Shown: positions 50-45,739, counted from the first letter of the stretch. The stretch is 64,000 nt of DNA from Prevotella sp. (GCF_036570325.1 NZ_DATCYK010000028.1:11526-75525), one strand, 5' to 3'. The notes: generated from the letters alone by a model not told the origin. Numbers and translations are program-made.

Positions 50-91
50 GTCGGACTAGTCAGACCGGTCTGACTAGTTCGACCGGTCCGA
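50..91. repeat. REP-like array of 9-bp near-palindromic units (R-GTCNGAC-Y), family A
   Basis: gtcggactagtcagaccggtctgactagttcgaccggtccga, followed by hairpins aggggc-ttaat-gcccct and gcccttaatgggca...tgcccattaagggc, downstream of the ABC gene. Confidence 0.85.
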
Positions 92-155
92 GGGGCTTAA
101 TGCCCCTGCCCTTAATGGGCAATTGCTTGCCCATTAAGGGCAAACCGCCGGCCCG

Positions 156-2018
156 CTATGCCTGCATGTCGTGCAACTTGCGGTAATATCCGTCCTTGGC
201 CAGCAGGCTTTCGTGGGTTCCCCGCTCCACGATGCGGCCCTCATGGAGCACGCATATCTCGTCGGCATTCTTGATAGTAGAGAGCCGATGGGCAATGGCC
301 ACCGTGGTGCGGGTCTTCATCAACCGCTCCAAAGCGTCCTGCACGAGGCGTTCACTCTCGGTGTCGAGGGCCGAGGTGGCCTCGTCGAGGATGAGGATGG
401 GCGGGTTTTTCAGGATGGCCCGGGCTATGCTGACACGCTGGCGCTGGCCTCCGGAGAGACGACCGCCACGGTCGCCGATGTTGGTATCAAAGCCATTCTC
501 GGACGACATGATGAAGTCGTAGGCGTTGGCAATGCGCGATGCCTCGATGATTTGCTCGTCGGTGGCGCCATCTACGCCGAAAGCGATGTTGTTGCGGAAC
601 GAGTCGTTGAAGAGAATAGCCTCCTGATTGACGTTGCCAATGAGCTGTCGCAGGTCGTGAATGCCGAGGTCGCGCACGTTGATTCCATCGATGAGCACCT
701 CTCCTTCCTGCACGTCGTAGTAGCGAGGGATGAGGTCCACGAGGGTGCTCTTGCCCGAGCCGCTCTGTCCCACCAAGGCTATGGTCTTGCCCTTGGGTAT
801 CGTAAGGTTGATATTGCGCAGCACATAAAGCAGTTGGTCGGCGCCATTGGGGGCATGGCCATCGGCGGCGCGATAGGCGAAACTGACGTTACGAAACTCT
901 ATCTGGTGCTCAAACGACGTGATATGTATGGGCGATTGGGGCTCCTGAAGGTCGATTTCGGCTTTCAATATCTTATCGACGCGCTCCATCGAGGCCAGTC
1001 CCTTGGGAATGTTATAGCCTGCCTTGGAAAATTCTTTCAGCGGATTGATAATGCTGTAAAGCAGCGTCATGTAGTAAATAAACGACGGTCCGTCGATGGT
1101 TTTATTGTTAAGCACGAGGATTCCGCCGAACCACAGCACCACGACGATCATCACCGTGCCCAAGAACTCGCTCATGGGATGGGCCATCTGTTGGCGAATG
1201 TTCACCTTCATGATGTCGCTTCGATAGGCCGAATTTACCTTGTCGAAGCGCCGGTTCATCTTTTCCTCGGCGCAAAATGCCTTGATGATACGTAGGCCGC
1301 CGAGCGTTTCCTCCACCTGACTCATCGTGTCGCTCCACAAGGCTTGGGCCTTCATGCTCTTGGCCTTGAGCTTTCGGCCCACCAAACCCATGAACCAACC
1401 GAACAAGGGCACGAAAACAATGGTGAACAGCGTCAGCTCCCACGACAGGAACAGCAAGGCCGAGAAATAAATAAGAATAAGGATGGGATTCTTGAAAAGC
1501 ATGTCGAGACTCGACATGATGGAACTTTCTATCTCCTGAACGTCGCCGCTCATGCGGGCAATGATGTCGCCCTTGCGCTCCTCGCTGAAGAAACCGAGCG
1601 GCAAAGCGTTGATTTTCCGATATAACTGATTGCGAATGTCGCGCACGACGCCGGTCCTTATGGGGATGATAGTGGCCGAGGAGAGGAAGTAGGCGCCCGT
1701 CTTGAGCAGCGTCATGAACGCCAAGACAAGGCCGATGATAAGCAGTGTGGTGGTAGCTCCCCACGTGCTGATGAGCTGACTGACGTAATAGTCCATGTTG
1801 TTCATCAGCGATTCCTTGAGATTTCCCATCGTCACGGGCATGAGCGCCGTGGCTTTGGCCCCGCCGTCGGTCTTGAACAGAATGCTCAACATGGGTATCA
1901 GCGTGGCAAAAGAGAACACGTTGAGGATGGCCGAGAGGACATTGAAGAACACGCTCCACGCCAAATAACGCTTGTAGGGTGGAACAAAACGGCGCAGCAC
2001 CTGTAGGAATTCTTTCAT
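156..2018 (-). CDS. ABC transporter permease/ATP-binding protein (MsbA-like exporter)
   Basis: 620 aa; N-terminal TM domain; Walker A GQSGSGKST, signature LSGGQRQ, Walker B ILILDEATSALD, H-loop IAHRL. Confidence 0.93.
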   Translation of the reverse strand: MKEFLQVLRRFVPPYKRYLAWSVFFNVLSAILNVFSFATLIPMLSILFKTDGGAKATALMPVTMGNLKESLMNNMDYYVSQLISTWGATTTLLIIGLVLAFMTLLKTGAYFLSSATIIPIRTGVVRDIRNQLYRKINALPLGFFSEERKGDIIARMSGDVQEIESSIMSSLDMLFKNPILILIYFSALLFLSWELTLFTIVFVPLFGWFMGLVGRKLKAKSMKAQALWSDTMSQVEETLGGLRIIKAFCAEEKMNRRFDKVNSAYRSDIMKVNIRQQMAHPMSEFLGTVMIVVVLWFGGILVLNNKTIDGPSFIYYMTLLYSIINPLKEFSKAGYNIPKGLASMERVDKILKAEIDLQEPQSPIHITSFEHQIEFRNVSFAYRAADGHAPNGADQLLYVLRNINLTIPKGKTIALVGQSGSGKSTLVDLIPRYYDVQEGEVLIDGINVRDLGIHDLRQLIGNVNQEAILFNDSFRNNIAFGVDGATDEQIIEASRIANAYDFIMSSENGFDTNIGDRGGRLSGGQRQRVSIARAILKNPPILILDEATSALDTESERLVQDALERLMKTRTTVAIAHRLSTIKNADEICVLHEGRIVERGTHESLLAKDGYYRKLHDMQA

Positions 2019-2090
2019 AAAATGGCTTTTTTAGTGGGGCCATGGCGCCGCCGTGACTCATCGTGACGGCCGCTGCCATGGGGTGATAGC

Positions 2091-3488
2091 TTAAATTTCT
2101 TCGCCAAAGAGCGTGGCGCTGGTAGAACCGGTGATACGCACTTTCACGAACTCACCGATGTGATGATTGCCTTTCTCTATGATGACGGCCTTGTTCTGCT
2201 CGGTCCGTCCCATCAGATGATTGCGGTCGCGCTTGGCAAATCGCTCGATAAGTATCGTGAACTCCTTGCCCTCATCCTTCTTGTTTTGCCGAGCGCTGAT
2301 GTCGGTCTGCAGGCGGATGAGCTTGTTGAGTCGGTCTACCTTCACCTCCTCGGGCACGTTGTCGGGCAGGTGTTTGGCGGCGTAGGTGCCCGGACGCTCG
2401 GAGTATTTGAACATGAAAGCGGAGTCGAAGCCCACTTCTTCCACCAAGGAGAGCGTCTGCCGGTAATCTTCCTCGCTCTCGTTGTGGTATCCCACGAAGA
2501 CGTCGGTGGTGAGGCCGCAGCCCGGAATGATGCGACGGATGGCCTCAACCTTGCTCAGGTAGTCCTCACGGGTGTACTTTCGGTTCATGAGTTTCAGCGT
2601 GGAATTGCTGCCACTCTGGGCCGGGAAGTGGATGTGATTGCAGAGATTGGGCTCCTCGGCGATGACATGGAGGATGTCCTCGGTCATGTCCTCGGGATTG
2701 GACGTGGTGAAACGCACCCGCATTTGGGGCACGCTGCGGGCCACCTCACGCAGCAGTTGGGCGAAGGAAATGCCGTCGTCGGGGCGCTTGCCGTTAGGAA
2801 GCAGACCGTAGGAGTTGACGTTCTGCCCCAAGAGGGTTACCTCCTTGAAGCCTTTGTCGCGCAGGTCGTGCACCTCCTTGAGTATGCTTTCCACGTCACG
2901 ACTGCGCTCACGACCACGGGTGAAGGGCACGATGCAGTAGTGGCAGAAGTTGTTGCAGCCACGCATAATGCTGACAAAACCGCTCACCCGGTTGCCTCCG
3001 ATACGCTGGGGAATGACGTCCCGGTAGGTCTCGGTGGTCGAGAGCTCCACGTCTTGCGCGTTATGTCCCAGCTCGCACTGGGCTATCATTTCGGGCAGAT
3101 TCAAGTAAGCGTCGGGTCCACACACGAGGTTGGCGTGGTGGTTCTGTATCAGGTCGTCCTTCACTCGCTCGGCCATGCAACCCAGCACACCCAATATGGG
3201 TGAGGGATGCGAGGCTTCCGACGCCGCCGGAGCCGGCCCATCGCCCTCCGCCAAGGCCTTTCGCTGCTCGGCGTCACGCTTCTTTTGCAGGGCATGGAGG
3301 GTTTCCAAACGGTGGTAAATCTTGTTCTCGGCGTTCTCACGAATGCTACATGTATTGAGGAAAATGGCGTCAGCGTCCTCCTCCTTGTCACATATTTCGT
3401 AGCCGGCCATCTGCATCACCGAGGCGACCACTTCGCTGTCGGCCACGTTCATCTGGCAACCGTAGGTTTCGATATATAGTTTTTTCAT
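2091..3488 (-). CDS. miaB: tRNA-2-methylthio-N6-dimethylallyladenosine synthase
   Basis: ETYGCQMN N-terminus, NTCSIRE, radical SAM motif GCNNFCHYC, C-terminal TRAM domain. Confidence 0.96.
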   Translation of the reverse strand: MKKLYIETYGCQMNVADSEVVASVMQMAGYEICDKEEDADAIFLNTCSIRENAENKIYHRLETLHALQKKRDAEQRKALAEGDGPAPAASEASHPSPILGVLGCMAERVKDDLIQNHHANLVCGPDAYLNLPEMIAQCELGHNAQDVELSTTETYRDVIPQRIGGNRVSGFVSIMRGCNNFCHYCIVPFTRGRERSRDVESILKEVHDLRDKGFKEVTLLGQNVNSYGLLPNGKRPDDGISFAQLLREVARSVPQMRVRFTTSNPEDMTEDILHVIAEEPNLCNHIHFPAQSGSNSTLKLMNRKYTREDYLSKVEAIRRIIPGCGLTTDVFVGYHNESEEDYRQTLSLVEEVGFDSAFMFKYSERPGTYAAKHLPDNVPEEVKVDRLNKLIRLQTDISARQNKKDEGKEFTILIERFAKRDRNHLMGRTEQNKAVIIEKGNHHIGEFVKVRITGSTSATLFGEEI

Positions 3489-3518
3489 ATTTCTTTTTAA
3501 AAAATGAGATGGATAATT

Positions 3519-4481
3519 TTACGCTTTGATTTTGCCCACGGCCATGAATCCGAAGAAAGCCATGGCCCCGGTAATGAGTCCGGCGATGGCGTCGACGGCG
3601 TAATGGGCCTGAATGTAAACCGTGGCCAAGCACAGAAAGACGTAGAATGGCGCCATGGCGAGGAGCAACTTGCGGTTGCCCGACCAGCCGATGAGCAGCA
3701 TGCAAACCGTGCTAATGCCCACGTGTGAGCTGGGGAAGGCGGCCGTGGGGCGCTCGCCGGCGGCCTTGGCGTCTTCCACCAAGTGATAGAACAAGCCGTC
3801 CTTGTAGCCCGGACTGGGCAGGCAAGCCTGATGGTTATTGAAGTAATCGTGCAGATTGGGGAACACGCCGTTGGCTATTTCCTTCAGTCCCACGGCCTTA
3901 TAATAGAAGGTGGGACCCACGACGGGCAGTAAATCGAACACTACGTAATAGGCGAAAAAGGAGCCGATGACCACGAAAGCGGCCCGTTGGAAATCCTGAT
4001 AGCGCCAAAAGAAGAAGTACAGAACGGTCAGTACGATGAGCGGATAGTAGGCCGCGTAGCCCATATCCATCAGCTCGCTCACCACGGGGGAGGGGAAGCG
4101 CTCGGCAAAGAGCAGGGCGGGCTGGCAGCCGAAGAGCCATTGGTCGGCCAAGGCAAAGTAGTGGTCGAGGTTGGGCAGCACCCGATTGAGCTCATAGGTG
4201 TCGGGGTACCACCATGCCAGCAGCCCGAACTGGGCCATCACCCTGAACAACATGACCATCCGACAAGGCAACAACCGGTAGCTGGCCCACAGCGCCAACG
4301 TCACCGCGCCTATCTTCAGACGGTCCCAAATCATGGAGTCGGGATTGTCGAGACGGGTGAAGAGGAAGAGCACCATGAGCAACGTGAAGGCCATGTAGCC
4401 CAGCACGACCCACTCCAACGGCAGCAGTCCGCGGCGTGGAGCGGCCTCTATCTTGAACAGTTCCTTGATTGTCATAGCCAA
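3519..4481 (-). CDS. PAP2-superfamily membrane protein, AUR1/IPT1 (inositol-phosphoceramide synthase)-like
   Basis: multi-TM; motifs AAFPSSH and VYIQAHYAVD; no obvious KxxxxxxRP motif. Confidence 0.75.
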   Translation of the reverse strand: MAMTIKELFKIEAAPRRGLLPLEWVVLGYMAFTLLMVLFLFTRLDNPDSMIWDRLKIGAVTLALWASYRLLPCRMVMLFRVMAQFGLLAWWYPDTYELNRVLPNLDHYFALADQWLFGCQPALLFAERFPSPVVSELMDMGYAAYYPLIVLTVLYFFFWRYQDFQRAAFVVIGSFFAYYVVFDLLPVVGPTFYYKAVGLKEIANGVFPNLHDYFNNHQACLPSPGYKDGLFYHLVEDAKAAGERPTAAFPSSHVGISTVCMLLIGWSGNRKLLLAMAPFYVFLCLATVYIQAHYAVDAIAGLITGAMAFFGFMAVGKIKA

Positions 4482-5473
4482 TGGTTCTCCTTATACCAGC
4501 GCATGGTGAGCGCCGTGCCCCGTCGAAGGTCGAAATGGGGATGATACCCCAGCTCGTCCATCGTGGGCTCTATGTTGCAACGCCAGTTGCGCTGGCGCAG
4601 AATGTTGTACTTATCATCGTTGAGCGCCGTCATCCTACCCGTGACGTGGCCCCAATACTCGCCCACCTTCGTGACGATACGCAGCACCCACACGGGTGCC
4701 TTTATCTTGATACGGAACGGTCGGCCCAGCTCCTCATGGATGTAATCGCTGAAGTCGCTGCTCTCGTAAATATTGCCATCGCTCAGGAAATACTTGCGTC
4801 CGTTCATGCCATGGTCGAAGGCCAAGAACACGGCTTGCACCACATCTTCCACATAAACGAAGGTGATGTCCTGCCGACGGAAGCCCACCGAGAAATCCAC
4901 ATGGCGCTTCATACTCTGCGCCATCAGGAAATAGTCGGTCTCACGAGGGCCATAGACGCCCGTGGGACGCAGCACTATGTAGGGGAAATCGCTGCCGAGG
5001 GAGTCGAGATAGTACTCTGCCTCGAGCTTGCTACGGCCATAGGCGGTGTTGGGACGGGGCAAATCGTTCTCATCTATCTCCTGATAAGGCTGCCGCTCCT
5101 TGATAGCGCCGAACACACTGAGACTGCTGATGAAGACAAAACGCCTGATGGGCATTTGCAACGCACGGATGGCGTCGGCCAAATTCTTGGTTCCCTCGGT
5201 GTTGGTCTTGAAAAAATCGGCCGCATGAAGACACTTCGTGGCACCGGCCGCGTGCACCACATAATCAAATTGTCGGCCGCGAAGCTGCTCTCGGAGCTTG
5301 TCAGCCGACCCAAGGTCAAGCTCTATGAAATGGATGCGAGGGTCTTGCAGATAGCGTCGTGAACTGCTTTTCCGCACGCCGGCCCACACCTCCATGCCAC
5401 GGCGCAGGGCTTCCTCAACCACGAAACTGCCGATGAAGCCACTCGCGCCTGTCACTAATATACTTAAACTCAT
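4472..5473 (-). CDS. NAD(P)-dependent epimerase/dehydratase (extended SDR)
   Basis: VTGASGFIG Rossmann motif, YGRSK (YxxxK), LRPTGVYGP; overlaps next gene by 10 nt. Confidence 0.9.
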   Translation of the reverse strand: MSLSILVTGASGFIGSFVVEEALRRGMEVWAGVRKSSSRRYLQDPRIHFIELDLGSADKLREQLRGRQFDYVVHAAGATKCLHAADFFKTNTEGTKNLADAIRALQMPIRRFVFISSLSVFGAIKERQPYQEIDENDLPRPNTAYGRSKLEAEYYLDSLGSDFPYIVLRPTGVYGPRETDYFLMAQSMKRHVDFSVGFRRQDITFVYVEDVVQAVFLAFDHGMNGRKYFLSDGNIYESSDFSDYIHEELGRPFRIKIKAPVWVLRIVTKVGEYWGHVTGRMTALNDDKYNILRQRNWRCNIEPTMDELGYHPHFDLRRGTALTMRWYKENHWL

Positions 5474-5500
5474 TATTTATTTATACGCGTATAACGCTTG

Positions 5501-5508
5501 CAAAGTTA
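5501..5508 (-). promoter_or_regulatory. Bacteroidetes -7 promoter box (TAACTTTG) for the SDR-PAP2-miaB-ABC operon
   Basis: caaagtta on + strand, 28 nt upstream of the SDR start. Confidence 0.7.
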
Positions 5509-5556
5509 GCGATTATTTCATGGATTTGCTACAAAGACATTAAAAAAAGTGGGGGC

Positions 5557-5860
5557 AGGCTCCATCGGCGACCCTCCGGGAGCGCCGATGGAGCAGTTGA
5601 GGAGGTGGGGAGTTGAGGGGATGAATAGTTTGTTTTGTGGATGATAGGATGCAGAAAAGTTGTTTTTAAAATATTAAAGTAACTATTCATCTTCCCAACC
5701 TCCCAACTCCTCAACTCCTTGAAGCCCTCATCGGACCAATCCGACTGGTCGGACCAGCCTGACCCGTCAAACCTTGCTTGAGGGTCAATGGGCCCCTCAA
5801 AGAATAAAGTAATTATTCATCCCCTCAACCCCTTAACCTCCAACTGCGGCTTTCGCCGCC
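5557..5860. repeat. Composite intergenic repeat cluster (hairpin, family B GGATGAAT units in both orientations, family A array, GCGGC-nnn-GCCGC hairpin)
   Basis: ggctccatcggcg...cgccgatggagc; agttgaggggatgaatagtt versus aactattcatcttcccaacc; tcggaccaatccgactggtcggacc; gcggctttcgccgc. Confidence 0.75.
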
Positions 5861-5878
5861 CTCAACCTCCTACCAACC

Positions 5879-5957
5879 AAAAAAAGGAATGACGCTTTTC
5901 ATCGGCGCCATTCCTTAGCTTTTGAGGCAGAAAGGGGCAGTCCTACTGCCCTTTTCT
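5879..5957 (-). terminator. Intrinsic terminator(s) downstream of GH20
   Basis: A-run then aaggaatg..cattcctt stem; second stem aaggggcag-tccta-ctgcccttt. Confidence 0.6.
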
Positions 5958-5987
5958 TAAAACTTTTACTTCAAACAAAGTCTGTTT

Positions 5988-7583: not shown

Positions 7584-7646
7584 GTTTGGGTTATGTTGAA
7601 TAAATGAATATGCCGGTCAATAGCTACGCCCTTCAAGCGCATAGGG

Positions 7647-7654
7647 CAAAATTA
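7647..7654 (-). promoter_or_regulatory. -7 promoter box (TAATTTTG) for GH20
   Basis: caaaatta on + strand. Confidence 0.6.
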
Positions 7655-7716: not shown

Positions 7717-7910
7717 GGCCATCCTGCCAACAACCTCGGATGGGTCATCCAATAACATCGGACCGGTCTGACTAGTCCGACTGGTCCGACCCGTCCGACG
7801 ATAAAATCGCCCGTCCCATCGCGGCCCTTTGGCCGCTCCAAAAGGCCGCGATAGGGCGACAAAAGCAGCCTTTTCGCTGGCCCGAAAGCCCCCTTTCACC
7901 GCCCCCCCTC
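7717..7910. repeat. Left flank of four-helix-bundle gene: shared ~28-bp motif, family A array, 11-bp-period tract
   Basis: ggccatcctgccaacaacctcggatgggtc; tcggaccggtctgactagtccgactggtccgacccgtccgac; caaaaggccgc/gatagggcgac/aaaagcagcct/tttcgctggcc. Confidence 0.8.
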
Positions 7911-8019: not shown

Positions 8020-8574
8020 ATGAGCGAAGCATTTCTCCAACAGAAAGGAGGCTACCGCCGACTCCGATCCTACCGGGCAGCCACCATTATCTACGACATC
8101 ACCTATTATTTTGCCACCCACTTCCTGCAAAAGGGCGACCGCACCGTCGACCAAATGATACAAGCCGCCCGCTCGGGTAAACAGAACATCGCCGAAGGCA
8201 GCGAGGCCGCCACCACCTCGGCCGAAACGGAAATGAAGCTGACCAATGTGGCCAAGGCAAGCCTCGAGGAATTGCTCATCGATTACGAGGACTATCTGCG
8301 CGTGAGGGCCAAACCGATATGGTCATCCTCCCACCCCCGCTGCCAAGCCATGAGGGCCTATACCGCCGGTGACCGCATAGCAAGCGAATATCCACGGCTG
8401 CTGCCCCGCCTGACGGACGAGGAAATGGCCAACCTATGCCTGACCCTCATCCACCAAACTACCTACATGCTCCGCAAACTCATCCTCCGCCAGCAGGAAA
8501 TGTTCCTCAAAGAAGGGGGCGTCAGGGAGCAGATGACCCGTGCACGGCTGCAAAGCAGGAGGGAAAGAGGGTAG
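8020..8574 (+). CDS. Four-helix-bundle protein (23S rRNA IVS-protein / Avd-like fold) with C-terminal suffix region
   Basis: DQMIQAARSGKQNIAEGS...KLTNVAKASLEELLIDYEDYLR is the family motif; ATG 8020 preferred over 7993. Confidence 0.85.
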   Translation: MSEAFLQQKGGYRRLRSYRAATIIYDITYYFATHFLQKGDRTVDQMIQAARSGKQNIAEGSEAATTSAETEMKLTNVAKASLEELLIDYEDYLRVRAKPIWSSSHPRCQAMRAYTAGDRIASEYPRLLPRLTDEEMANLCLTLIHQTTYMLRKLILRQQEMFLKEGGVREQMTRARLQSRRERG

Positions 8575-8594: not shown

Positions 8595-8711
8595 CCTCAG
8601 ACGGGTCGGATTGGTCCGACCCGTCCGACCAAAGAGCCATGCTCTCAACCCAATAGGCCATCTGCCAACCTCGGATTGGTCCAACCGGTCCGACTAGTCA
8701 GACCGGTCTGA
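8595..8711. repeat. Right flank of four-helix-bundle gene: two family A arrays and second copy of the shared motif
   Basis: gggtcggattggtccgacccgtccgacc; ggccatctgccaacctcggattggtcc; ggtccgactagtcagaccggtctga. Confidence 0.8.
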
Positions 8712-8768
8712 TTCCCTCAAGAGCCTTCAAAATCCACCAAAATCTTTGACGATTTCGGCTAATTGTCT

Positions 8769-12697: not shown

Positions 12698-12767
12698 GTT
12701 TTTACACCTTAATTAATAGCTTTCGCCCCATGGAGCGTTAGCCTTTTAGCCGGCAAAAGCCGGCCTT

Positions 12768-12860
12768 CCGACTAATCGAACCCATCAGACCGGTCCGACG
12801 GGTTCGACCATGATAGGGGCCACCTCCCCAACCTCACAACGGCGGCTCTGCCGCCTACGC
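12768..12860. repeat. Family A array plus GGCGGC-nnn-GCCGCC hairpin
   Basis: tccgactaatcgaacccatcagaccggtccgacgggttcgacc; ggcggctctgccgcc. Confidence 0.7.
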
Positions 12861-15969: not shown

Positions 15970-16010
15970 GTCGGACCGGTCCGATTGGTCAGACTTGTCC
16001 GACCGGTCCG
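15970..16010. repeat. Family A array
   Basis: gtcggaccggtccgattggtcagacttgtccgaccggtccga. Confidence 0.85.
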
Positions 16011-16158
16011 AAGACTTTTCCGGAAAATAGGAGGCCAAAAGCCCCGCTATCCCCGCAAAACCACCCCTTCATCCGCCCAACTCCTCACCTTCACAACTGC
16101 GGTTCCGGGTACGGGCCGCCACGGCCTTGCCGCCCCCACAACCCAAAAAATTATCATT

Positions 16159-17043
16159 ATGAAAACCCTTCCTGCCCACATGGCCGTACTCATGGCCAAC
16201 ATTATTTTCGGACTCGGCGTCCCGGTAACCAAACTCCTGCTCGACAAATGGGTATCGCCCATGGGCTACATGGTCACCCGCTGCATCGGCGCGGCCGCCA
16301 TTTTTTGGCTCATCTCCTTGTTCATGCCCAAGGAAAAGGTGAGCCGTCACGACCTCATCGTCATCATGTTGGGCGGCCTGCTGGGCTTCGTCGTGTCGCA
16401 AACCCTCACCGCTTGGGCCCTCACCTACACCACCCCCGTTTACTTTTCGCTCATCGCCACCCTCACCCCCGTGGCCACAATGGTGTGCGCCTCACTCATG
16501 ATAGGTGAGAAAATGACCACCCGCGGCATTATCGCCGTGCTCATCGGCATAGCCGGTGCCATGCTCATGGTGCTCATGGGATGGCAGGGCGGCCGCGGCA
16601 CCAACGACTTGCTGGGCATAGGCCTCACCATTTTGAGCCTGCTCACATGGGCCGTCTACCTCATCATCACCCGCAAGGTATCGACCCGCTACACCGCCGT
16701 GACGCAGATGAAATGGGTGTTCCTCGTTTCCACGGTGGCCGTGCTGCCCTTCTCATGGAACGATCTCCTCACGGCGCCCCTCTACTCCTCCGCCACCCAA
16801 TGGGACGGTTTGCTCGAAATGGGCTTCATCGTCATCTTCGCCACCGTGGCCGGCTATTTCGCCATCCCCTTCGCCATGCGCTATCTCGAGGCCACGACCG
16901 TCAGCATTTACACCAATCTCCAGCCCATCGTCGCCTCCCTCGTGGCCATCGCCCTCATGCAGGATGTCCTCACGTGGGACAAGCCCGTGGCCCTCATCTT
17001 GGTGCTGCTGAGCGCGTACGTGGCACAGCCTCGGCGCTCTTAG
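16159..17043 (+). CDS. EamA/DMT family transporter
   Basis: about 10 TM helices in two EamA repeats; start moved to MKTLPAH because the 72 upstream codons are repeat-derived. Confidence 0.88.
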   Translation: MKTLPAHMAVLMANIIFGLGVPVTKLLLDKWVSPMGYMVTRCIGAAAIFWLISLFMPKEKVSRHDLIVIMLGGLLGFVVSQTLTAWALTYTTPVYFSLIATLTPVATMVCASLMIGEKMTTRGIIAVLIGIAGAMLMVLMGWQGGRGTNDLLGIGLTILSLLTWAVYLIITRKVSTRYTAVTQMKWVFLVSTVAVLPFSWNDLLTAPLYSSATQWDGLLEMGFIVIFATVAGYFAIPFAMRYLEATTVSIYTNLQPIVASLVAIALMQDVLTWDKPVALILVLLSAYVAQPRRS

Positions 17044-17185
17044 TCAGACGGGTCGGGCCGGTCAGACGGGTCCGACTAGTCGGATGGCTACCGCCCATAG
17101 GGCGGCTGTGCCGCCCCTACTACTCCAAAACTAACCATTCATCCTCCCAGACCTCCCAACTTTACTACTGCGGCTATGCCGCCTA
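17042..17185. repeat. Family A array, GCGGC hairpins and family B unit between convergent genes
   Basis: agtcagacgggtcgggccggtcagacgggtccgactagtcgga; ggcggctgtgccgcc; aaccattcatcc. Confidence 0.8.
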
Positions 17186-19192: not shown

Positions 19193-19465
19193 GATACGAG
19201 TTAATAAGTTGACAAGATACGAGTTGACGAGTTAACGAGTTATTTGCTTAATCAAAAAGAGTTGGGAGTTGTGGCTAATGAGGTGGTAGCGGGGCGAGGC
19301 TTTAATATCATCGGACTTGTCGGACAAGTCTGACAGGTCCGACCGGTCTGACAAATTACTCAACAATGGTGGCTCCGCCGCCACACGCTTTTAAAGGAAA
19401 CTATTCATCCTCTCAACCCCTCAACCTGACAACGGGGGCTCTTGCCCCCTTCACCTGCGGCTCCG
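19193..19465. repeat. Composite of family C, A and B units and GCGGC hairpins between rdgB and porZ
   Basis: gatacgagttaataagttgacaagatacgagttgacgag; tcggacttgtcggacaagtctgacaggtccgaccggtctgac; aactattcatcc. Confidence 0.8.
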
Positions 19466-25182: not shown

Positions 25183-25396
25183 GGTTGGTGGTTGGGGAGG
25201 TTTTAGTTGGCAGTTGGGGAGTTGGGGGGATGAATGGTTAGCCGGGATTGGTGAGGGGTGGTAGTTGGGGGGATGAATGGTTAGTTGTTATTGGTTGAGG
25301 GTGAGTAGTTGGGGGGATGAATGGTTAGTTTTGTTTTTGCTCCTTCTATTTGCCTCAGCCCGGTCTGATTAGTCCGACTGGTCCGACTATTCCGAT
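25183..25396. repeat. Family B G-rich repeats (43-44-bp period) plus family A array
   Basis: three agttggggggatgaatggttag copies spaced 43 and 44 bp; cggtctgattagtccgactggtccgact. Confidence 0.8.
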
Positions 25397-26149: not shown

Positions 26150-26430
26150 AGGTGGGCGGTTGAGGGGTTGGGGGATGAATGGTTTGCCTTGAGGGCGATA
26201 AGGTGAGAGGGTGAGGCGGCCTTGCCGCCGCTGTAGAGAGAGCGTCGGACGGGTCTGAGCTGTCGAATCGGTCCGATTAGTCTGACTGGTCCGACTCGTC
26301 CGACAGCTCCCTTTCCCCCCACCTCCTCACCCCCTCAGCCTGCCACCACGCCTCTTCTCCCTCCTCAAACCAGCCCTTTAGCTCGTCCAAAGGGCAGCTT
26401 TAAGGGCCCAAAAGGCCCACTTTTTCACAC
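26150..26430. repeat. Composite of family B, GCGGC hairpin, family A and 11-bp-period tract
   Basis: ggggatgaatggtt; ggcggccttgccgcc; gtccgattagtctgactggtccgactcgtccgac; tttagctcgtc/caaagggcagc/tttaagggccc/aaaaggcccac. Confidence 0.75.
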
Positions 26431-35919: not shown

Positions 35920-36010
35920 GTAGTTGAGGAGTTGGGGGGTTGAGGGGATGAATGGTTTGTTTTAAGATGAGGGAGTGGCAATGCCGCTCCTTATCCCCCA
36001 ACTCCTCACC
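35920..36010. repeat. Family B unit and GAGYGGC-AAT-GCCGCTC hairpin
   Basis: agttgaggagttggggggttgaggggatgaatggtt; ggcaatgccgctccttatcccc recurs at 43622-43644. Confidence 0.7.
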
Positions 36011-37322: not shown

Positions 37323-37455
37323 GGTTGGTGGTTGGGAAGTTGGGGGGATGAATGGTTTGATAATAAGGTTGGTGGTTGGGAGGTTGGGGGGATGAATAGT
37401 TTGAGAATAAGGTTGGTGGTTGGGAGGTTGAGGGGATGAATAATTTGTTGAGAAG
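37323..37455 (+). repeat. Three tandem 44-bp G-rich units (family B)
   Basis: ggttggtggttggga starts at 37323, 37367 and 37411. Confidence 0.9.
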
Positions 37456-37490: not shown

Positions 37491-37692
37491 CGGTCTGATT
37501 AGTCTGACTGGTCCGACTTGTCTGATTATCCCCCGCCATTAAATAAAGTCTCTGCCAATCTCCGCCAGATTATCCCCGAAGTAAAAATAAAGTTTCTGCC
37601 AATCTTCATCTGTTAAAAGCTATGCAATCATCAGGTCAAAGGCCCACTTCGGCCCGGTCAATCGCCCACTTCGGCCCGGTCAATCGCCCACT
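37491..37692. repeat. Family A array, 44-bp-spaced duplication and 22-bp tandem repeat
   Basis: gattatcccc..taaagt(c/t)tctgccaatct at 37524 and 37568; cccacttcggcccggtcaatcg x2.3 from 37643. Confidence 0.8.
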
Positions 37693-38945: not shown

Positions 38946-39029
38946 ATCGTCATGCCCCGGCGCTCTGCTTCTCCTCTCAACAATACGGGTTTCCGCCCCG
39001 CCGGCCCTCTTTCGGAGCGTAAAAAAACA

Positions 39030-39830
39030 TCGTATATAAATAAGGAGGAAAACATTTCGCTCCCTAAATCAGATAGATTGATAGGGCAAAGAGCTATGTC
39101 TTTCAATAAAAAAGCAGACGGTTCGTTTTCTAAATCGGCCGAATGGATAGGGCAAGGAGCTATGTCTTTAAATAAAGAAGCAGCTGGTTCGCTCTTTAAA
39201 TCGGCCGAGTTAATTGGGCAAAGAGCTACATTTTTCAATAAAAAAGCAGCCGGTTCGCTCCCTAAATCGGCCGAATGGATAGGGCTAAGAGATACATCTT
39301 TAAATGAAGAAGCAGCCGGTTCGCTCTCCTAAATCGGCCGAATGGATAGGGTAAAGAAATACGTCTTTAAATAAAAAAGCAGACGGTTCGCTCTCCAAAT
39401 CGGATGGAATTCTGACGCAGGAGGATTGGAATTTGAATAAGAATAGTTCTCTTTTCTCAAACAATTCCGCTGAAATCATCGGGCAAGAAAATTAGGATTT
39501 GAATAAAGAAGGATATATTTTCCTCGCTAAATCGAATAGCTCCATCGGGCTAAAAACTCAATATTCGAGCATGGAATCATCCTTTTCTCGAAGCAAGACA
39601 AATAAAGTCATCGGGCTAAAAACTCAATATTTGAGCGAGGAACCATGCTTTTCTCAAAGCAAGACAAATAAAGTCATCGGGCTAAAAACTCACTATTCGA
39701 GCATGGCCCCATATATATCTCAAAACAAGATAAATTAAACCATCGGGTAAGAACATAAAAAATTGAAAACAGAAGAATCATTTTCTCAAAATAATTCCCC
39801 TTTGATTGAGGGTGAAAATCAAATTTTACA
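39030..39830 (+). repeat. Degenerate tandem array of about 12 x 66-bp units
   Basis: unit starts at 39056, 39122, 39188, 39254, 39320, 39387; atcggg anchors at 39478, 39544, 39610, 39676, 39742; reads as 22-aa repeats. Confidence 0.9.
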
Positions 39831-40845
39831 TGCGGCCGGAGCCACGTCGATAGCGCTTTATCGACTGCCCGACGCGGCGGAGTATGTGCGCATGGAGCAA
39901 ACGAGGGGGCTGCCCCGGCGGCTTGGTTCGGTGGAGGAATTGGGCCGTGAGCGAGGTTTTGCCATGGTACCGTTCGACACGGAAGCCGAGCCGGTGGTGC
40001 TCTTGCGGCCCGATAGGGTGGAGGTGTGCCCGTTGGAGGCCGATGAGCCGATGACCGTGGAGACCGTCGCGGTCGACGGCGAGGGCGATCGCAGCCGCTA
40101 TGGGCATGATTTTCGGCGGTTCCATGAGGCGCTCTTTGACGGCAAGTTTCAAAAAATAGTGCTGGCCCGGCGCAGCGAACGGCTCATGAGCGAGGAGGTT
40201 GGGGCGGAGCGTCTCTTCCGTCATGCCTGCCATTTGTACCCTCATCAGATGGTGGCGCTCTTCAGTTCGCCCCTCACGGGCACGTGGCTCATGGCCACAC
40301 CCGAGGTGCTTTTGCGGGGCGATGGGCAGCGGTGGCACACCATGGCCTTGGCCGGCACCATGCCGACGGACGGGCCTTGGAGCGAGAAAAACAAGGAGGA
40401 GCAGGCCTTTGTGGCCACGTATATAGAACAATGTCTGCGCCGACGGGCCACGGACGTGACCCTCTCGCCCACTTACACCCGCACGGCGGCACGGCTGTTC
40501 CATCTCTGTACCGATTTCAGTTTCGGCCTGCCATCGTCCCGGTGCGTCGGTCCGTTGCTCGAGGAGCTGTTTCCCACGCCCGCCGTCTGTGGCATTCCCA
40601 AGGACCGGGCCCGCCGTTTCATTCGGCAAAACGAGTCGGCGCCCCGCAGTTATTACAGCGGTTTTCTCGGTCCTATCGACCCTTTGGGCACCACGGAGCT
40701 TTACGTTTCGTTGCGCTGCGTGCGCATTGAGGGTTGTCGGCTCAGCCTTTTCGCCGGGGGCGGACTGCTTACCGAGAGCCAAGAAAACAAGGAATGGGCC
40801 GAAACCGAAGCCAAATTGAAAACGATTTCGCATGTTTTTGAATGA
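39763..40845 (+). CDS. menF: Isochorismate synthase (start codon uncertain)
   Basis: QKIVLAR, WLMATPE, MALAGT, HLCT, LFPTPAVCG, LYVSLRC, LFAGGG. Confidence 0.9.
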   Translation: MKTEESFSQNNSPLIEGENQILHAAGATSIALYRLPDAAEYVRMEQTRGLPRRLGSVEELGRERGFAMVPFDTEAEPVVLLRPDRVEVCPLEADEPMTVETVAVDGEGDRSRYGHDFRRFHEALFDGKFQKIVLARRSERLMSEEVGAERLFRHACHLYPHQMVALFSSPLTGTWLMATPEVLLRGDGQRWHTMALAGTMPTDGPWSEKNKEEQAFVATYIEQCLRRRATDVTLSPTYTRTAARLFHLCTDFSFGLPSSRCVGPLLEELFPTPAVCGIPKDRARRFIRQNESAPRSYYSGFLGPIDPLGTTELYVSLRCVRIEGCRLSLFAGGGLLTESQENKEWAETEAKLKTISHVFE

Positions 40846-40880
40846 TCGATAAGGCTTTGGAAAATCAGTCATTGGCATGT

Positions 40881-40916
40881 TGTCGGACCAGTTGGATCGG
40901 TCAGACCAGTCTGATA
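40881..40916. repeat. Family A array inside the men operon
   Basis: tgtcggaccagttggatcggtcagaccagtctga. Confidence 0.8.
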
Positions 40917-41008
40917 ACGCATGCTTCAAATCAGCTGCTTGCATGATTTTAAAGTCGACCCCCCATGCTTTCAATCAGCCATAGATATTTTTAAAATACT
41001 AAAATCGC

Positions 41009-42721
41009 ATGTTCTCTGATAAGGAAAATATAAATATTCTCACGTCGTTGCTCATAGGTCATGGCGTGAAACATGCCGTGGTATGTCCCGGGAGCAGGAA
41101 TGCGCCCATTGTGCACAACCTTGACGAGGCGCCCGAAATCACGTGCCACTCGGTTACGGATGAGCGCTCGGCGGCGTTTTATGCCCTCGGTATGGCCGAG
41201 ACTACGGGCAGCCCGGTGGCGGTGTGCGTCACTTCGGGCACGGCGTTGCTCAATGTGTTGCCCGCCGTGGCGGAGGCTTTTTACCGCCATGTGGCCTTAG
41301 TGGTGGTGTCGGCCGACCGTCCCGCGGCGTGGATAGGCCAGCAGGACGGGCAGACATTGCCCCAGCCCGACGCCTTGGGACGCTTTGTGACGAAGGCGGT
41401 GAGCCTACCCGAGCCGATGGATGAGGACGGGCGGCGTTATTGTAACCGACTTGTCAATGAGGCGCTCATCGCCGCCAAGCGCCACGGGGGACGGCCCGTG
41501 CATATCAATGTGCCCATCAGCGAGCCGCTGTTCGCGTTTACCAAGGTCGGGTTGCCCCGTGAGCGGGTTATCCGAATGGTGGAGGCCACGGAGAGCGCGG
41601 ACTGCCATGAGGCGCCGGGAGCGGCTCTTTTATCGGCCCAAAGGCCCATGATTGTCGTGGGACAGTTGGCCTTTGACGAGGCCGAAAAGGTGAGTCGGGC
41701 CGTGCGAAGGCTGCGGACTGACGTGGTGGTTGTGGGCGAATGTCTCTCGCTGGCGGGCGATGAGGCGGATGGCGGGTTGGCTGACGACGGCCGACCGATG
41801 GCCCCGCAGCACGTGGATAAGGTGCTGGCACAGCTGGGCGAGGGCGTGGCCGACTATCTGCCCGACTTCATTCTCTACGTCGGAGGCACGCTGGTGAGCA
41901 AGCGTCTCAAGCAATTCCTGCGCCAAGCTGTGCAGGTCCGCACGTGGATTGTGAACCGGGGAGGCGAGGTGTACGATACTTTCCTTAATTTGGAGGGCGT
42001 CGTCGATGGTCGGTGTGGCTGCGTGTTGGAAAATATAGCCACCGATTTGCCGCGGCGCAAGGCTTGTGGCGACATGGCCATTGACCCGGCTTTCGTCGGC
42101 CGATGGGCCGCGGCTTTCCGTCGGGCGGCGCAGGCTTTCGGCCGTTTCGTGCCCCGTTACTCGCAGCTTTCGGCCGTCAAGGCGTTCTTTAAGGGCCTTC
42201 CGGCCCGTCGACCTTACACCATCCATGCCGCCAACAGCATGTCGGTGAGGCTCGTGGGACTGTTTGCCACGGGCCACGTCATGTGCAACCGGGGTGTCAA
42301 CGGCATTGAGGGATCGCTCTCCACGGCCGCGGGCAGTTCGCTGGTGGGCCTTACGGAGACGTTCTGTGTCATCGGCGACCTCAGTTTTTTCTATGATCAA
42401 AACGCCTTGTGGCCCCGTTTGGGTCGCAATTTCAAGGTGTTGTTGCTCAATAATCATGGCGGTGGAATCTTCGCCACGCTGCCCGGTCTGCCGTCGAGCG
42501 GTGCCTATGAGGCTCACGTGGCGGCCCGTCATGGGCTTTCGGCGCAAGGTATCTGTGCCCAGTGTGGGGTGGATTATCTCGCCGCCCATGACGCCCGGGA
42601 GCTTGAGGAAGCCATGGCGGCGTTCATGCGCACGGGGAATGAGCGGCCCGTGGTGCTGGAAGTATTTACCGACAGCAACACGGACGCAGAAGTAATGAAA
42701 GAATATTATCAATCAAAATAA
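41009..42721 (+). CDS. menD: SEPHCHC synthase
   Basis: [23 protein letters not shown]-like [32 protein letters not shown]. Confidence 0.95.
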
Positions 42722-42723
42722 AT

Positions 42724-43548
42724 ATGAAAAGAGAATGGAAAACCATCGAAGGGTTTGATTTCAAGGAAATCCTCTTTGAAGAATACAATCACATTGCCAA
42801 GATAACCATCAACCGTGAGCGCTACCGCAACGCCTTCACGCCGCTTACGACGTGGGAGATGAGTCAAGCGTTGAGCTACTGCCGTGAGGCCGCCGACGTG
42901 AGGGTGGTCATCCTTACCGGTGCGGGCGACAAGGCGTTTTGCTCGGGTGGCGACATGAACGTGAAGGGACGGGGCGGCTATGTGGGCACCGACGGCGTGC
43001 CACGGCTCAACGTGCTCGACGTGCAGATGCAGATTCGACGCCTGCCCAAGCCCGTCATCGCCATGGTCAACGGCTACGCCATCGGGGGCGGACATGTGCT
43101 CCACGTGATGTGCGACTTGACGATCGCCTCGGAGAATGCCATCTTCGGACAGACGGGACCCAAGGTTGGCTCGTTCGACGCGGGCTTTGGCGCCAGCTAT
43201 CTGGCCCGTATGGTGGGACAGAAAAAGGCCCGTGAGATATGGTTTTTGTGCAAACAGTACACTGCCCGTGAGGCGGAGCAGATGGGAATGGTCAACCGTG
43301 TGGTTCCCTTCGATGCGCTTGAGGACGCTTGTGTGGAGTGGGCTGAGGTGATGATGGAGCGCTCTCCGCTGGCCCTTCGCATGATCAAGGCGGGTCTCAA
43401 CGCCGAGCTCGACGGGCAGGCGGGCATTCAGGAGCTGGCCGGTGACGCCACCATGCTGTATTACACCATGGATGAGGCGCAGGAAGGAGGCCGTGCTTTC
43501 CTCGAGAAACGCAAGCCCGACTTCGATAAGTATCCGCAGTTTCCGTGA
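42724..43548 (+). CDS. menB: 1,4-dihydroxy-2-naphthoyl-CoA synthase
   Basis: [34 protein letters not shown]. Confidence 0.97.
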
Positions 43549-43568
43549 TGAGGGGGCTTTTTCTTTTG

Positions 43569-43645
43569 GTCGGACGGGTCAGACTAGTCCGACCGGTCCG
43601 ACCAGTCCGAGCTCCATGAGCGGCAATGCCGCTCCTTATCCCCCT
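43569..43645. repeat. Family A array plus hairpin between menB and menC
   Basis: gtcggacgggtcagactagtccgaccggtccgaccagtccga; gagcggc-aat-gccgctc. Confidence 0.85.
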
Positions 43646-43673
43646 TTTATTACCAATAATCTCCTCTCTTCCT

Positions 43674-45719
43674 ATGCTTAAAATAACCATTACCGACCGC
43701 ACGCTTCACTTCAAACAGCCGGCCGGAACGTCGAGGGGCGTGTATCTCACACGCCACAGTTACTACCTTACACTGACCGACTCGGAGCGGCCGGGACTGA
43801 CGGGTGTGGGCGAATGTGCGCCCTTGCCCCGGCTCTCGTGTGACGATTTGCCCGATTACAGTCGGATTTTGAGAGAAATGTGTGACCTCGTGGAGCAGTC
43901 GGGCGCTATCCCCTATGAGCGGTTGCGGCCTTATCCGAGCATGCTGTTTGGCTTGGAAACGGCGTTCGCGCAGCTCGAGGCGCAGGGTAGCACCGCCTTG
44001 TTCGACACCCCCTTTGGCCGTGGTGAGGAGGGCATTCCTATCAACGGACTGGTATGGATGGGCACGTTCGACGAGATGATGGGGCGCTTGGAGGCGAAGC
44101 TCGAGGAGGGATTTCGCTGCGTGAAGCTCAAGATTGGCGCCATCGACTTCGACCGTGAGCTGGCGCTTATACGCCACATACGCCGGCGTTTCACGAAAGA
44201 GGAGGTGGAATTGCGGGTCGACGCCAACGGCGGATTCACCCCTCAAGAGGCCATGGGGCGCTTGGAGGCGCTGTCACGTTTTGACATCCATTCCATCGAA
44301 CAGCCCATACGCCAACGCCAATGGGCTGACATGGCCCGTCTGTGCGCCCATTCGCCGCTGCCCATCGCCCTCGACGAGGAGCTGATAGGGGTCAACTCTA
44401 AGGAGGAAAAAGAGCGGTTGCTCGACACGATACGGCCTCAATACATCATCCTTAAACCGAGTTTGCACGGGGGTATGAGGGGTTCGGAGGAATGGATAAG
44501 GCTGGCCCGCCGGCGAGGCATAGGCAGTTGGATAACCTCGGCCTTGGAAAGCAACGTGGGACTGAACGCCATCGCCCATTTCTGCGCTAAGGTATATGGT
44601 CCTGCCATCACCATGGCGCAGGGCTTGGGAACGGGCCAACTCTTCACCGATAATATCGAAATGCCTTTGGAAATCAAGGGAGACAAACTGTGGGCCGGGG
44701 CCACGCTGGCCTCGTTCATGAGCGAGTGGCGGGACAGTAGTCCCACGGTGACAGTGCGCACGAGTGGCAGCACGGGGCAGCCCAAGGCCATGCGGGTGGA
44801 GAAAAGGCGCATGCTGGCGTCGGCCCGCATCACGTGTGACTTCCTCGGACTGCGGCCCGGATGCACGGCCTTGCTCTGTATGAAGCTCGACTATATAGCG
44901 GGCAAGATGATGGTGGTGCGCGGTTTGGAGCGGGGCATGCGGCTCATCAGCGTGCCACCCGACGGCCATCCCTTGGCCGCGTTGGGCGAGGGGCAGGCTC
45001 CCGACTTCGCGGCGATGGTGCCGTTGCAGGTATATAATTCGTTAAAAGTGGAGAAAGAGCGCCGTTTGCTCGGCCAAATCGGCCATCTCATCATCGGCGG
45101 TGGCGCCATTGACGACGACTTGGAACGGCGGCTGAAGCGCCTTCCCAACGCCGTATGGAGCAGTTATGGCATGACCGAGACGCTGTCGCACATTGCCCTG
45201 CGCCGTGTTTCGGGCCCGCAAAGCAGCTCGTGGTACACGCCGTTCGACAGTGTCAGCGTGGCGCTGAATGAGGAAGGATGTCTCGTTATCCATGCTCCCG
45301 AGGTGTGCGACGGCCTCCTCGTGACCAACGACCGGGCCGAGCTGCGGACCACCGATGGACCCGACGGGCGGCCGTTGACACAATTCAGGATTCTCGGAAG
45401 AAAGGATAATGTGATAGATTCGGGGGGAATAAAAATACAAATAGAGGAAGTGGAGCAAGCGCTGCGGCCCTTCCTGCGCCATCCTTTCATGATAACCAAG
45501 CGCCCCGACGCTAAATTTGGCGAGGCCATAGTGCTGCTGACCGAGCATAGCGACATGGCGGAGGTGAGCGAGATATGTATGAACTGCTTGCCCAAATATT
45601 GGGTGCCACGCCATTATGTGCACGTGGAGCGTCTGCCCCTCACCCCTACCGGCAAGCCCGCAAGGAAGGAAGCGGAGCGGTTGGCGGAAGAATCGGTCGG
45701 ACTAGTCGGACTGGTCTGA
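43674..45719 (+). CDS. menC-menE: Fused o-succinylbenzoate synthase / OSB-CoA ligase (MenC-MenE)
   Basis: enolase-family KLKIG, RVDANG, IALDEELI, ILKPS, then ANL ligase TSGSTG, YGMTET, GRKDNVIDSGG, TGKP; one continuous frame; start moved to MLKITI. Confidence 0.9.
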   Translation: MLKITITDRTLHFKQPAGTSRGVYLTRHSYYLTLTDSERPGLTGVGECAPLPRLSCDDLPDYSRILREMCDLVEQSGAIPYERLRPYPSMLFGLETAFAQLEAQGSTALFDTPFGRGEEGIPINGLVWMGTFDEMMGRLEAKLEEGFRCVKLKIGAIDFDRELALIRHIRRRFTKEEVELRVDANGGFTPQEAMGRLEALSRFDIHSIEQPIRQRQWADMARLCAHSPLPIALDEELIGVNSKEEKERLLDTIRPQYIILKPSLHGGMRGSEEWIRLARRRGIGSWITSALESNVGLNAIAHFCAKVYGPAITMAQGLGTGQLFTDNIEMPLEIKGDKLWAGATLASFMSEWRDSSPTVTVRTSGSTGQPKAMRVEKRRMLASARITCDFLGLRPGCTALLCMKLDYIAGKMMVVRGLERGMRLISVPPDGHPLAALGEGQAPDFAAMVPLQVYNSLKVEKERRLLGQIGHLIIGGGAIDDDLERRLKRLPNAVWSSYGMTETLSHIALRRVSGPQSSSWYTPFDSVSVALNEEGCLVIHAPEVCDGLLVTNDRAELRTTDGPDGRPLTQFRILGRKDNVIDSGGIKIQIEEVEQALRPFLRHPFMITKRPDAKFGEAIVLLTEHSDMAEVSEICMNCLPKYWVPRHYVHVERLPLTPTGKPARKEAERLAEESVGLVGLV

Positions 45720-45739
45720 CCGGTCAGACTAGTCCGACA
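45695..45739. repeat. Family A array overlapping the menE 3' end
   Basis: tcggtcggactagtcggactggtctga encodes SVGLVGLV-stop. Confidence 0.9.

Follow-up and report, generated by a model that had tools for sequence, protein, structure and literature searches.

Intergenic arrays of a 9-bp palindrome in Prevotella: a palindromic minisatellite that probably forms the central module of BrickBuilt-type mosaic repeats

A 64,000-nucleotide stretch of a Prevotella genome (NZ_DATCYK010000028.1:11526-75525; referred to below as the window) contains a dispersed family of intergenic arrays in which the 9-bp palindrome R-GTC-N-GAC-Y is repeated head to tail. We think it probable that these arrays are a palindromic minisatellite and that they form the central module of non-autonomous intergenic repeats, built as mosaics or in the manner of miniature inverted-repeat transposable elements (MITEs), of the kind exemplified by BrickBuilt in Porphyromonas gingivalis. 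In behaviour they resemble the repeated palindromes outside genes (repetitive extragenic palindromes, REPs) and bacterial interspersed mosaic elements (BIMEs) of Proteobacteria, but they would not belong to a system of REPs and REP-associated tyrosine transposases (RAYTs). The host assembly (G000) is an uncultured, metagenome-assembled Prevotella genome of 2.96 Mb in 141 contigs, 92% complete and with 1.2% contamination; the window lies on its contig C28.

Structure and abundance of the arrays

An earlier note on this DNA had described the unit as an odd palindrome with a free centre base, and this description is accurate: the R-GTC-N-GAC-Y units abut without spacers. The two-unit pattern GTCNGACNNGTCNGAC, allowing at most one mismatch, had 46 matches in the window; 100 dinucleotide-preserving shuffles of the same sequence gave 0.13 on average and 2 at most. 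A relaxed in-register caller returned 15 arrays of 4-7 units, 11 of them with exactly five units (43 bp), and thereby recovered every array that had been listed from inspection; between positions 45739 and 64000 it found none. Tandem Repeats Finder likewise reported periods of 9 and 18 bp at the array sites. The arrays of the window are as follows.

50-92: five units; 3' of the stop of an ABC-transporter gene (156-2018, minus strand); DNA fold z -3.65
5730-5772: five units, degenerate (one mismatch in 4 of 5 units)
7757-7799: five units; upstream of a four-helix-bundle gene (similar to 23S intervening-sequence proteins, IVPs)
8596-8629: four units; 21 bp past the stop of the four-helix-bundle gene
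8670-8712: five units
12766-12808: five units, degenerate; between the convergent oxidoreductase-beta and mutS genes
15970-16012: five units; upstream of the publicly called start of an EamA transporter gene, though within its longest open reading frame (ORF)
17043-17085: five units; between the convergent EamA and PorZ genes
19310-19352: five units; flanked by PorZ and a Ham1-family gene; strain contig L256 differs at most of the free positions
25354-25396: three good and two decayed units; in the leader of an M15-peptidase gene, adjoining three 43-bp GGATGAAT units
26244-26304: seven units, the middle ones decayed; between divergent promoters; strains vary in unit number and content
37493-37526: four units; follows three 44-bp GGATGAAT units and a GC hairpin
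40882-40915: four units, degenerate; between the menF-like and menD genes
43569-43611: five units; between menB and menC/menE
45696-45738: five perfect units; menC/menE stop inside unit 3; strongest hairpin of the set, z -7.5

The whole genome has 57 called arrays, of which 29 consist of five units and 18 of four. The core string GTCNGAC occurs 575 times, and its regular spacing is pronounced: successive sites lie exactly 9 bp apart in 124 cases and 18 bp apart in 14, any other spacing being seen at most three times. The linkers between cores are TA, CG, TG or CA in 147 of 201 cases (73%). The centre base follows a gradient along the array, from G in the units at its start to C in those at its end, a pattern that is symmetric under reverse complement. 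Within these regularities the arrays are diverse, the 29 five-unit arrays showing 26 different centre-base patterns, and no conserved flank was found beside them.

Free positions change in blocks between strains

The behaviour of the arrays over short evolutionary distances was examined by aligning two contigs of another strain (L155 and L256, run SRR15023601) to 27 kb of the window. Coding sequence differed at 2.7% of positions and intergenic DNA outside the arrays at 5.6%. Array cores differed at 5 of 156 positions (3.2%), whereas for the free positions, that is, the centre N and the two linker bases, the figure was 26 of 66 (39%), an excess with a Fisher p of 1.7e-11 over the cores and of 1.4e-15 over intergenic DNA outside the arrays. 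Free positions therefore change about seven times faster than neutral DNA, and they do so in blocks. The cores were indistinguishable from other intergenic DNA (p = 0.28); since they evolve at about the neutral intergenic rate, purifying selection on them is not detectable.

The array at 43569-43611 is a clear case. Against the other strain (L148/L155), 9 of its 13 free positions are different, and two whole linkers swapped between TA and CG account for four of these. All 35 core positions are identical, and about 140 flanking bases show a single difference, which lies some 45 bp upstream. The array at 45696-45738 differs at five of its free positions and at one base of its last core. In P. 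ihumii, the array-richest species in our sample (see below), one array between identical flanks differs between strains by three consecutive TG-to-CA linker swaps and a G-to-A centre change; judged by eye on the alignment, these changes let 15 bases form a perfect inverted repeat with a stretch farther down the array. One P. ihumii strain lacks 27 bp of array, which is exactly three units. The species is present in many public gut metagenomes, a single gene alone matching at least 24 contigs. As a cause of the strain differences, a simple inversion of the array was compared by hand: it matched slightly better at one locus (7 of 13 free positions, compared with 4 of 13 in direct alignment), and did no better than direct alignment at another.

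Whole modules also come and go. At 35958 a hairpin-array-hairpin foldback occupies, in the other strain (L155), the place taken in the window by a GGATGAAT unit and a single hairpin, and the copy number of the 43-44-bp GGATGAAT units and of 22- and 66-bp repeats varies between strains. By the terms of the earlier note, its reading would fail if arrays were no commoner than in a GC-matched shuffle, or were fixed at identical positions in distant relatives with no turnover. Neither applies: the arrays exceed the shuffles, an array is present in one strain and absent in another, and unit numbers change.

Such a pattern fits templated exchange between units, as judged from the aligned sequences. 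All units share the same self-complementary core, and hence two strands, or one strand folded back on itself, could anneal in any register of 9 bp. One unit might then be copied onto another by slipped pairing, by strand switching on a hairpin template or by short gene conversion. Copying of this sort would be silent in the identical palindromic cores and would scramble the free positions, and continued exchange could keep the cores uniform without selection on each site, that is, by concerted evolution. Template-switch mutation hotspots at quasipalindromes are established by E. coli and phage T4 genetics. The arrays resemble them in that block changes are confined to self-pairing mismatches between identical flanks; they differ in that the process is deduced here from natural strain differences only.

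Companion modules and folding

The arrays belong to mosaics as their modules, and both companion families named in the earlier note are present. Units containing GGATGAAT, composed of G-rich 8-mers plus GGATGAATGGTT, accompany 16 of the 57 arrays in fixed orientation, mostly 30-50 bp away. A GC-rich hairpin (e.g. GGCGGC-n-GCCGCC) lies within 45 bp of 30 of the 57. The modules follow a regular order, as in a BIME-type mosaic: the 8-mers and GGATGAAT unit, then the GC hairpin, then the array. Several arrays have the same arms on either side as mirror images, so that the whole makes up a foldback of about 230 bp. The arms in this genome are inverted copies of mosaic modules with termini that are not definable, and neither target duplications nor identical array copies were found in it. 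Representative modules in the window are listed below.

26-43: GC hairpin module, GGCGGC-6 nt-GCCGCC; has a GGATGAAT unit on one side and the array on the other; represents the third family
25220-25330, plus strand: tandem 43-bp companion units (G-rich 8-mers plus GGATGAATGGTTAG); strains have 2 or 3 copies
35940-35990: mosaic without an array in this strain; hairpin-array-hairpin foldback in strain L155 (58-bp and 8-bp insertions)
37323-37447, plus strand: tandem 44-bp companion units of the same family as the 43-bp units; strain L155 lacks 66 bp

Single-stranded DNA of the arrays folds strongly in either orientation (z -1.9 to -7.5). This is due to the self-complementary cores, and to the cores alone. 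We rejected the idea of a whole-array hairpin maintained by covariation: mirror complementarity of the free positions was 144, against 135 +/- 6 after shuffling. Similarly, the mean RNA minimum free energy (MFE) of -19.6 kcal/mol was not significantly different from the -19.0 +/- 0.4 obtained with shuffled free positions. No T-run was present in 114 array flanks, as an intrinsic terminator would have, and no extension of stems from arrays into the flanks was seen. Rfam 15 gave 0 matches in the window at gathering score, and a tRNA scan likewise returned nothing. The architecture of a CRISPR array, in which unique spacers of similar length part the repeats, is absent, the array units abutting without spacers.

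Arrays inside a MITE of Prevotella ihumii

The cultured type strain P. ihumii Marseille-P3385 (G292, LT706987) carries 103 arrays of 3-14 units in an even sample of 1.68 Mb (53% of the genome), from which we extrapolate to roughly 190 in total. They are clustered, with an index of dispersion of 2.3 and a hot region at 1.78-2.0 Mb. Many of them are enclosed by the inverted ends, 25 bp long, of a MITE family; these ends begin TTAAACCCAAATCG and are perfect around the arrays at L018 and L056. The 11-base end motif occurs in pairs of two size classes: the first spans 196-199 bp, with about 60 copies in the 1.68 Mb, and the second forms a ladder of 62, 71, 80 ... 143 bp, in 9-bp steps, and holds the arrays. 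The 196-199-bp MITE (L138-L147, L257-L330) has ends TTAAACCCAAATCGGTCGTTAGAC and TA/TTA-like flanking bases, and the sampled sequence contains 295 end motifs.

Neither an empty site for this MITE nor a parent, in the sense of an autonomous element with the same ends, was found in P. ihumii. The elements that do lie between MITE ends were rejected as parents, as they are nested IS110- and IS66-family insertions. An IS630-type transposase was also rejected: its copies lack the MITE ends, and the Prevotella genome of the window has none. At one identical point of the right end, a 197-bp MITE and an array-bearing MITE each carry an inserted IS110-family element (374 amino acids, PF01548 and PF02371).

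L310:10863-12409: IS110-family insertion, P. ihumii
L319:18241-19697: IS110-family insertion, P. ihumii

REPs are known targets of IS110-family insertion sequences, as with ISPpu9 of Pseudomonas (PMC12288879), and the P. ihumii element resembles this case in occupying one fixed point of the MITE end; this end is likely to be its sequence-specific target. The P. ihumii MITE ends and the IS110-type transposase are absent from the genome of the window, which indicates that the array is the shared module and that the arms are species-specific.

Relation to BrickBuilt and to REP/RAYT systems

BrickBuilt is a minisatellite within a MITE of Porphyromonas gingivalis, with a 23-nt unit and demonstrated promoter activity (Klein et al. 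2015, PMC4596501). Every feature by which, following that paper, we defined this type of element is found in the arrays: tandem units without spacers between leader and tail arms, an intergenic location (invariable in BrickBuilt), multiple copies and a variable number of units. The two also have in common short units, tens of copies, restriction to certain species and a Bacteroidales genome. The arms of BrickBuilt have small inverted ends, and the P. ihumii form, with its 25-bp inverted ends around n x 9 bp, has the same architecture. The differences are that the unit here is a 9-bp palindrome, that the arms differ in several species and phyla, and that in the genome of the window they are mosaics without defined ends.

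REP/BIME mosaics, and the REP doublets forming hairpins (REPINs), occur with RAYT (Y1) transposases in Proteobacteria (PMC2817692, PMC3333891, PMC3116915). Like them, the arrays are abundant extragenic palindromes in mosaics with other small motifs, often just past stop codons and lineage-specific in occurrence; the 57 arrays, 55 of the 56 classifiable ones intergenic, fall within the tens to hundreds of extragenic copies expected of REPs. The unit, however, is different in kind: a REP is an imperfect palindrome of 20-40 bp with a conserved GTAG-like head tetranucleotide, arranged in inverted pairs of alternating orientation, whereas the units here are perfect 9-bp palindromes placed head to tail. 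Furthermore, the family of Y1 HUH transposases (PF01797), whose RAYT genes usually have REPs beside them, had no match in the genome of the window (92% complete), in P. ihumii (99%) or in the genomes G068 and G023; the same search gave matches in 6 of 14 control genomes. Because neither this genome nor the array-richest P. ihumii has a Y1 transposase, we conclude that the arrays are not a REP/RAYT system. The observation that no RAYT lies in the window can thus be extended to the whole genome and to P. ihumii. The accompanying proposal of a REP-like system is borne out as regards dispersion, intergenic location, mosaic structure and turnover, but the arrays have neither the transposase nor the unit of REPs. 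Loss of SbcCD was considered as a reason for tolerance of palindromes and rejected, since weak SbcD-like matches occur in array-bearing and array-free genomes alike.

Genomic context

The genome-wide context of the arrays rests on our own gene calls; the contigs are 14% non-coding. The gaps that hold arrays are co-directional in 26 cases, convergent in 15 and divergent in 8, close to the shares of these classes in intergenic length. In co-directional gaps the arrays are weakly shifted towards the stop on the upstream side (their relative position averages 0.40, p = 0.03), and in 10 of the 15 convergent gaps the array is at most 41 bp from a stop. The arrays had been described as sitting at gene 3' ends, between convergent genes and inside operons. 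Their intergenic position is amply supported, but the 3' bias is weak, and they also occur in the eight divergent promoter regions and in one 5' leader.

Genes of the window are typical of Bacteroidota, including PorZ of the type IX secretion system, a TonB receptor and a 2-oxoacid oxidoreductase. The GC-rich contigs C28, C31, C54, C79 and C51 hold about 2.2 arrays per 10 kb, and all three small-repeat families are enriched on these same contigs. On the 799-kb contig C56, which has a GC content of 43%, there are 0 arrays, against 15 expected. The mean GC content at third codon positions (GC3) is 0.47 on C56 and 0.66-0.72 on array-rich contigs (C28, C31, C54), C28 itself having 0.72. A chimeric bin was rejected as the cause of this uneven distribution: MutS, LeuS and RNase R are single-copy, contamination is low and marker identities agree. 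Thus IleS (on C56) and LeuS (on C28) have identities of 88/86% to G023, 87/86% to G105, 80/79% to P. ihumii and 75/74% to G068, in the same order and closely similar in four of the five genomes compared; G407 departs (70-72% versus 81%). By its marker genes, the assembly looks like one organism despite the spread in GC3.

Two loci deserve separate mention. The stop codon of the fused menC/menE gene (45717-45719) lies within unit 3 of its array, and public gene calls give products of 681 and 678 residues in two strains (L148/L149); the array therefore shapes the C-terminus. Next to this array, between the convergent menC/menE and peptidyl-prolyl isomerase genes, the window has a hairpin (45739-45770), and the other strain has an unrelated hairpin (L148:5500-5540) between conserved flanks. 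The four-helix-bundle gene (8020-8574), which has a weak match to 23S rRNA intervening-sequence proteins, lies between arrays, and a directly repeated motif of about 30 bp precedes the arrays around it (7724-7757 and 8661-8690). This gene (23S IVP/Avd-like) was rejected as a multi-copy driver of the arrays, being single-copy and below the Pfam score cut-off; three arrays flank it.

Distribution among species

At least one exact three-unit match was present in 15 of 401 sampled Prevotella species. The counts were 927 in P. ihumii, 349, 67 in the present genome and 34, with at most 11 in each of the other eleven species; a control pattern read backwards gave almost no matches in the same scan. 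The nearest relatives found, G023 and G105 (86-88% amino acid identity), have no arrays, and the orthologous M15 leader of G023 is ordinary AT-rich sequence with no mosaic. A metagenome scan with PorZ for intermediate relatives returned only proteins of 28-42% identity.

Beyond Prevotella, a scan of one genome per species found the unit in other Bacteroidales (Muribaculaceae, Porphyromonadaceae, Bacteroidaceae), in Lentisphaeria and in Verrucomicrobia. The arrays in these Bacteroidales and in these two taxa of the Planctomycetes-Verrucomicrobia-Chlamydiae (PVC) group have clearly non-coding flanks and often, again, five units. In the metagenome-assembled Lentisphaerae genome SIG83 (L040, L009), arrays of 4-5 GTCTGAC units with CT/TT linkers lie inside a repeat of about 170-250 bp, several per contig. 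The family had been called lineage-specific. Its occurrence in 15 of 401 Prevotella species is restricted, but its presence in other Bacteroidales and in Lentisphaeria means that the unit is not specific to one lineage.

Other occurrences of the pattern are of a different nature. In high-GC taxa (Streptomyces, Planctomycetes), homogeneous units of the same pattern look coding. Among viral contigs (L157-L236) there were 86 loci, and 90 of 109 arrays lie inside open frames of at least 200 codons. These viral matches are coding look-alikes, a collagen-like Gly-Pro-Thr reading of the same DNA: GGT-CCG-ACN reads Gly-Pro-Thr, so that the collagen-like GXY repeats of phage tail fibres and of PVC and actinobacterial proteins have an identical DNA pattern, (GTCNGACNN)n. 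They differ from the Prevotella arrays, which are intergenic, in their long ORFs and homogeneous units. The look-alike inflates database counts of the array pattern, and pattern searches therefore need a check of coding context.

The open-access literature contained no description of the unit. Within it, the string GTCNGAC appears only in work on LldR, on genes of Pseudomonas fluorescens that respond to glucose regulation and on how E. coli degrades fatty acids, and on this basis the array family is apparently undescribed so far.

Discussion

The hypervariable free positions, the ladder of 9-bp steps between MITE ends in P. ihumii and the ordered mosaics of the present genome are among the observations on which we base the view that the arrays are minisatellite modules of non-autonomous repeats. 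Several findings weigh against it. No terminal inverted repeats could be delimited for the mosaics of this genome, and neither could target duplications or a transposase. The arrays do not share free-base patterns and so show no sign of recent copying, and the sole clean case of presence and absence (35958) is a complex module swap rather than an empty site. The mobiliser of the P. ihumii MITE was likewise not found, the IS630-type copies lacking its ends and the IS110-type element using one of them as a target. The same core in different phyla would not be expected from generic slippage, and the five-unit mode, the G-to-C centre gradient and the regional clustering hint at constraints beyond a selfish or neutral reading. 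As to the exchange of units, the strain data comprise two contigs of one other strain and one P. ihumii locus, and individual events have no unambiguously identified donor unit.

The occurrence of the same 7-base core with unrelated arms, and in other gut phyla, suggests, though more weakly than the above, that a sequence-specific dimeric protein reads RGTCNGACY, whether a transposase or recombinase yet to be recognised or a host factor. In its stronger form, this becomes the rather unlikely alternative that the arrays are iterated operator-like sites, one dimer binding each 9-bp palindrome and abutting sites assembling a filament or wrapped complex with a host role, for instance in marking domains, organising the nucleoid or silencing. 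MetJ metboxes are tandem 8-bp palindromes in 2-5 copies, and ribbon-helix-helix proteins such as omega and ParG use heptad arrays; the arrays share with these the abutting short units without spacer, the small number per site and a period below the helical repeat. Operator-like sites would accord with the invariant core beside free centre and linker bases, with its recurrence next to unrelated arms in two Prevotella species, other Bacteroidales and Lentisphaeria, and with the lack, at the free bases, of the covariation that an RNA or DNA stem would require. Arrays in non-transcribed divergent regions, the regional clustering in both this genome and P. ihumii, and the modal size fixed at five units in this genome point the same way. 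However, MetJ, omega and ParG act at a handful of operators or centromeres and the protein is known, whereas here there are 57 to about 190 hypervariable sites and no candidate protein was found. Moreover, the cores evolve near the neutral rate, array length in P. ihumii spans 3-14 units, decayed arrays persist and the closest relatives do without arrays altogether. A particular form of this idea, to which we give a little less credence still, is that the arrays bind an unrecognised dimeric protein of some gut Bacteroidales and PVC bacteria and mark chromosome regions, the MITE-like arms being mere vehicles; it draws on the empty 799-kb contig, the clustering in P. ihumii and the coincidence, in this genome, with the regions of highest GC3.

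Transcribed arrays could act, in the way suggested for REPs, as RNA hairpins that halt 3' exonucleases or end transcription at gene 3' ends, and the strong folding in either orientation, the bias towards upstream stops and the proximity to stops in convergent gaps would suit such a role. We consider it improbable nonetheless, given the eight arrays in divergent promoter regions and the one in a 5' leader, a distribution over gap categories that simply follows intergenic length, and the lack of T-runs, stem extension, covariation or any Rfam family. Equally improbable, in our estimation, is a purely local origin by repeated slippage in place from GTCNGAC-like seeds, with no mobility and with arms that are unrelated neighbours. 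Unit gain and loss and runs of identical units are indeed seen, and this genome has neither identical copies nor target duplications; but the GGATGAAT units keep a fixed distance and orientation to the arrays, P. ihumii arrays lie precisely between the two ends of one MITE family, the unit recurs across taxa, and most Prevotella species are array-free although GTCNGAC seeds are presumably not rare, to judge from the number here. Lastly, the arrays might be coding repeats, with collagen-like Gly-Pro-Thr or Ser-X-Thr triplets in one always-open frame. The viral, Streptomyces and Planctomycetes arrays show that the pattern can look coding, but we give this reading almost no weight for Prevotella: all but one of the classifiable arrays are intergenic, they are only 15 codons long, the first codon position may be G, A, C or T with no fixed Gly, and promoters, stops and hairpins flank them.

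If the arrays are indeed minisatellite modules of BrickBuilt type, their likeliest effects would be by-products, such as stable hairpins at 3' ends and in leaders, changed C-termini and breaks in assemblies. The arrays add a well-defined family, with an unusual 9-bp perfect palindrome, to the little-studied interspersed repeats of Bacteroidales. With free positions so much more variable than cores (39% against 3%) between identical flanks, they provide a clean natural case of position-specific hypervariation and could serve as a natural model in which to study template switching and the concerted evolution of palindromic minisatellites. Since P. ihumii Marseille-P3385 is cultured and rich in arrays, bench tests are possible. 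There are also practical consequences, as the arrays break short-read assemblies, alter C-termini and occupy leaders and promoter regions: many public short-read contigs, those of P. ihumii included, stop inside arrays. They could, in addition, serve as strain-typing markers.

Further repeats in the window

Two other repeat regions were noted. Between nadA and the menF-like gene (39080-39790) lie two blocks of 66-bp tandem repeats, from which strain L155 lacks 199 and 198 bp, three units in each block; since conservation extends over the whole unit, they are not a CRISPR. The gap that separates the TonB receptor gene from the next one (49318-49668) holds arrays with 8-, 11- and 16-bp periods (AGTTGACA-type, with inverted copies), which represent a further repeat family.

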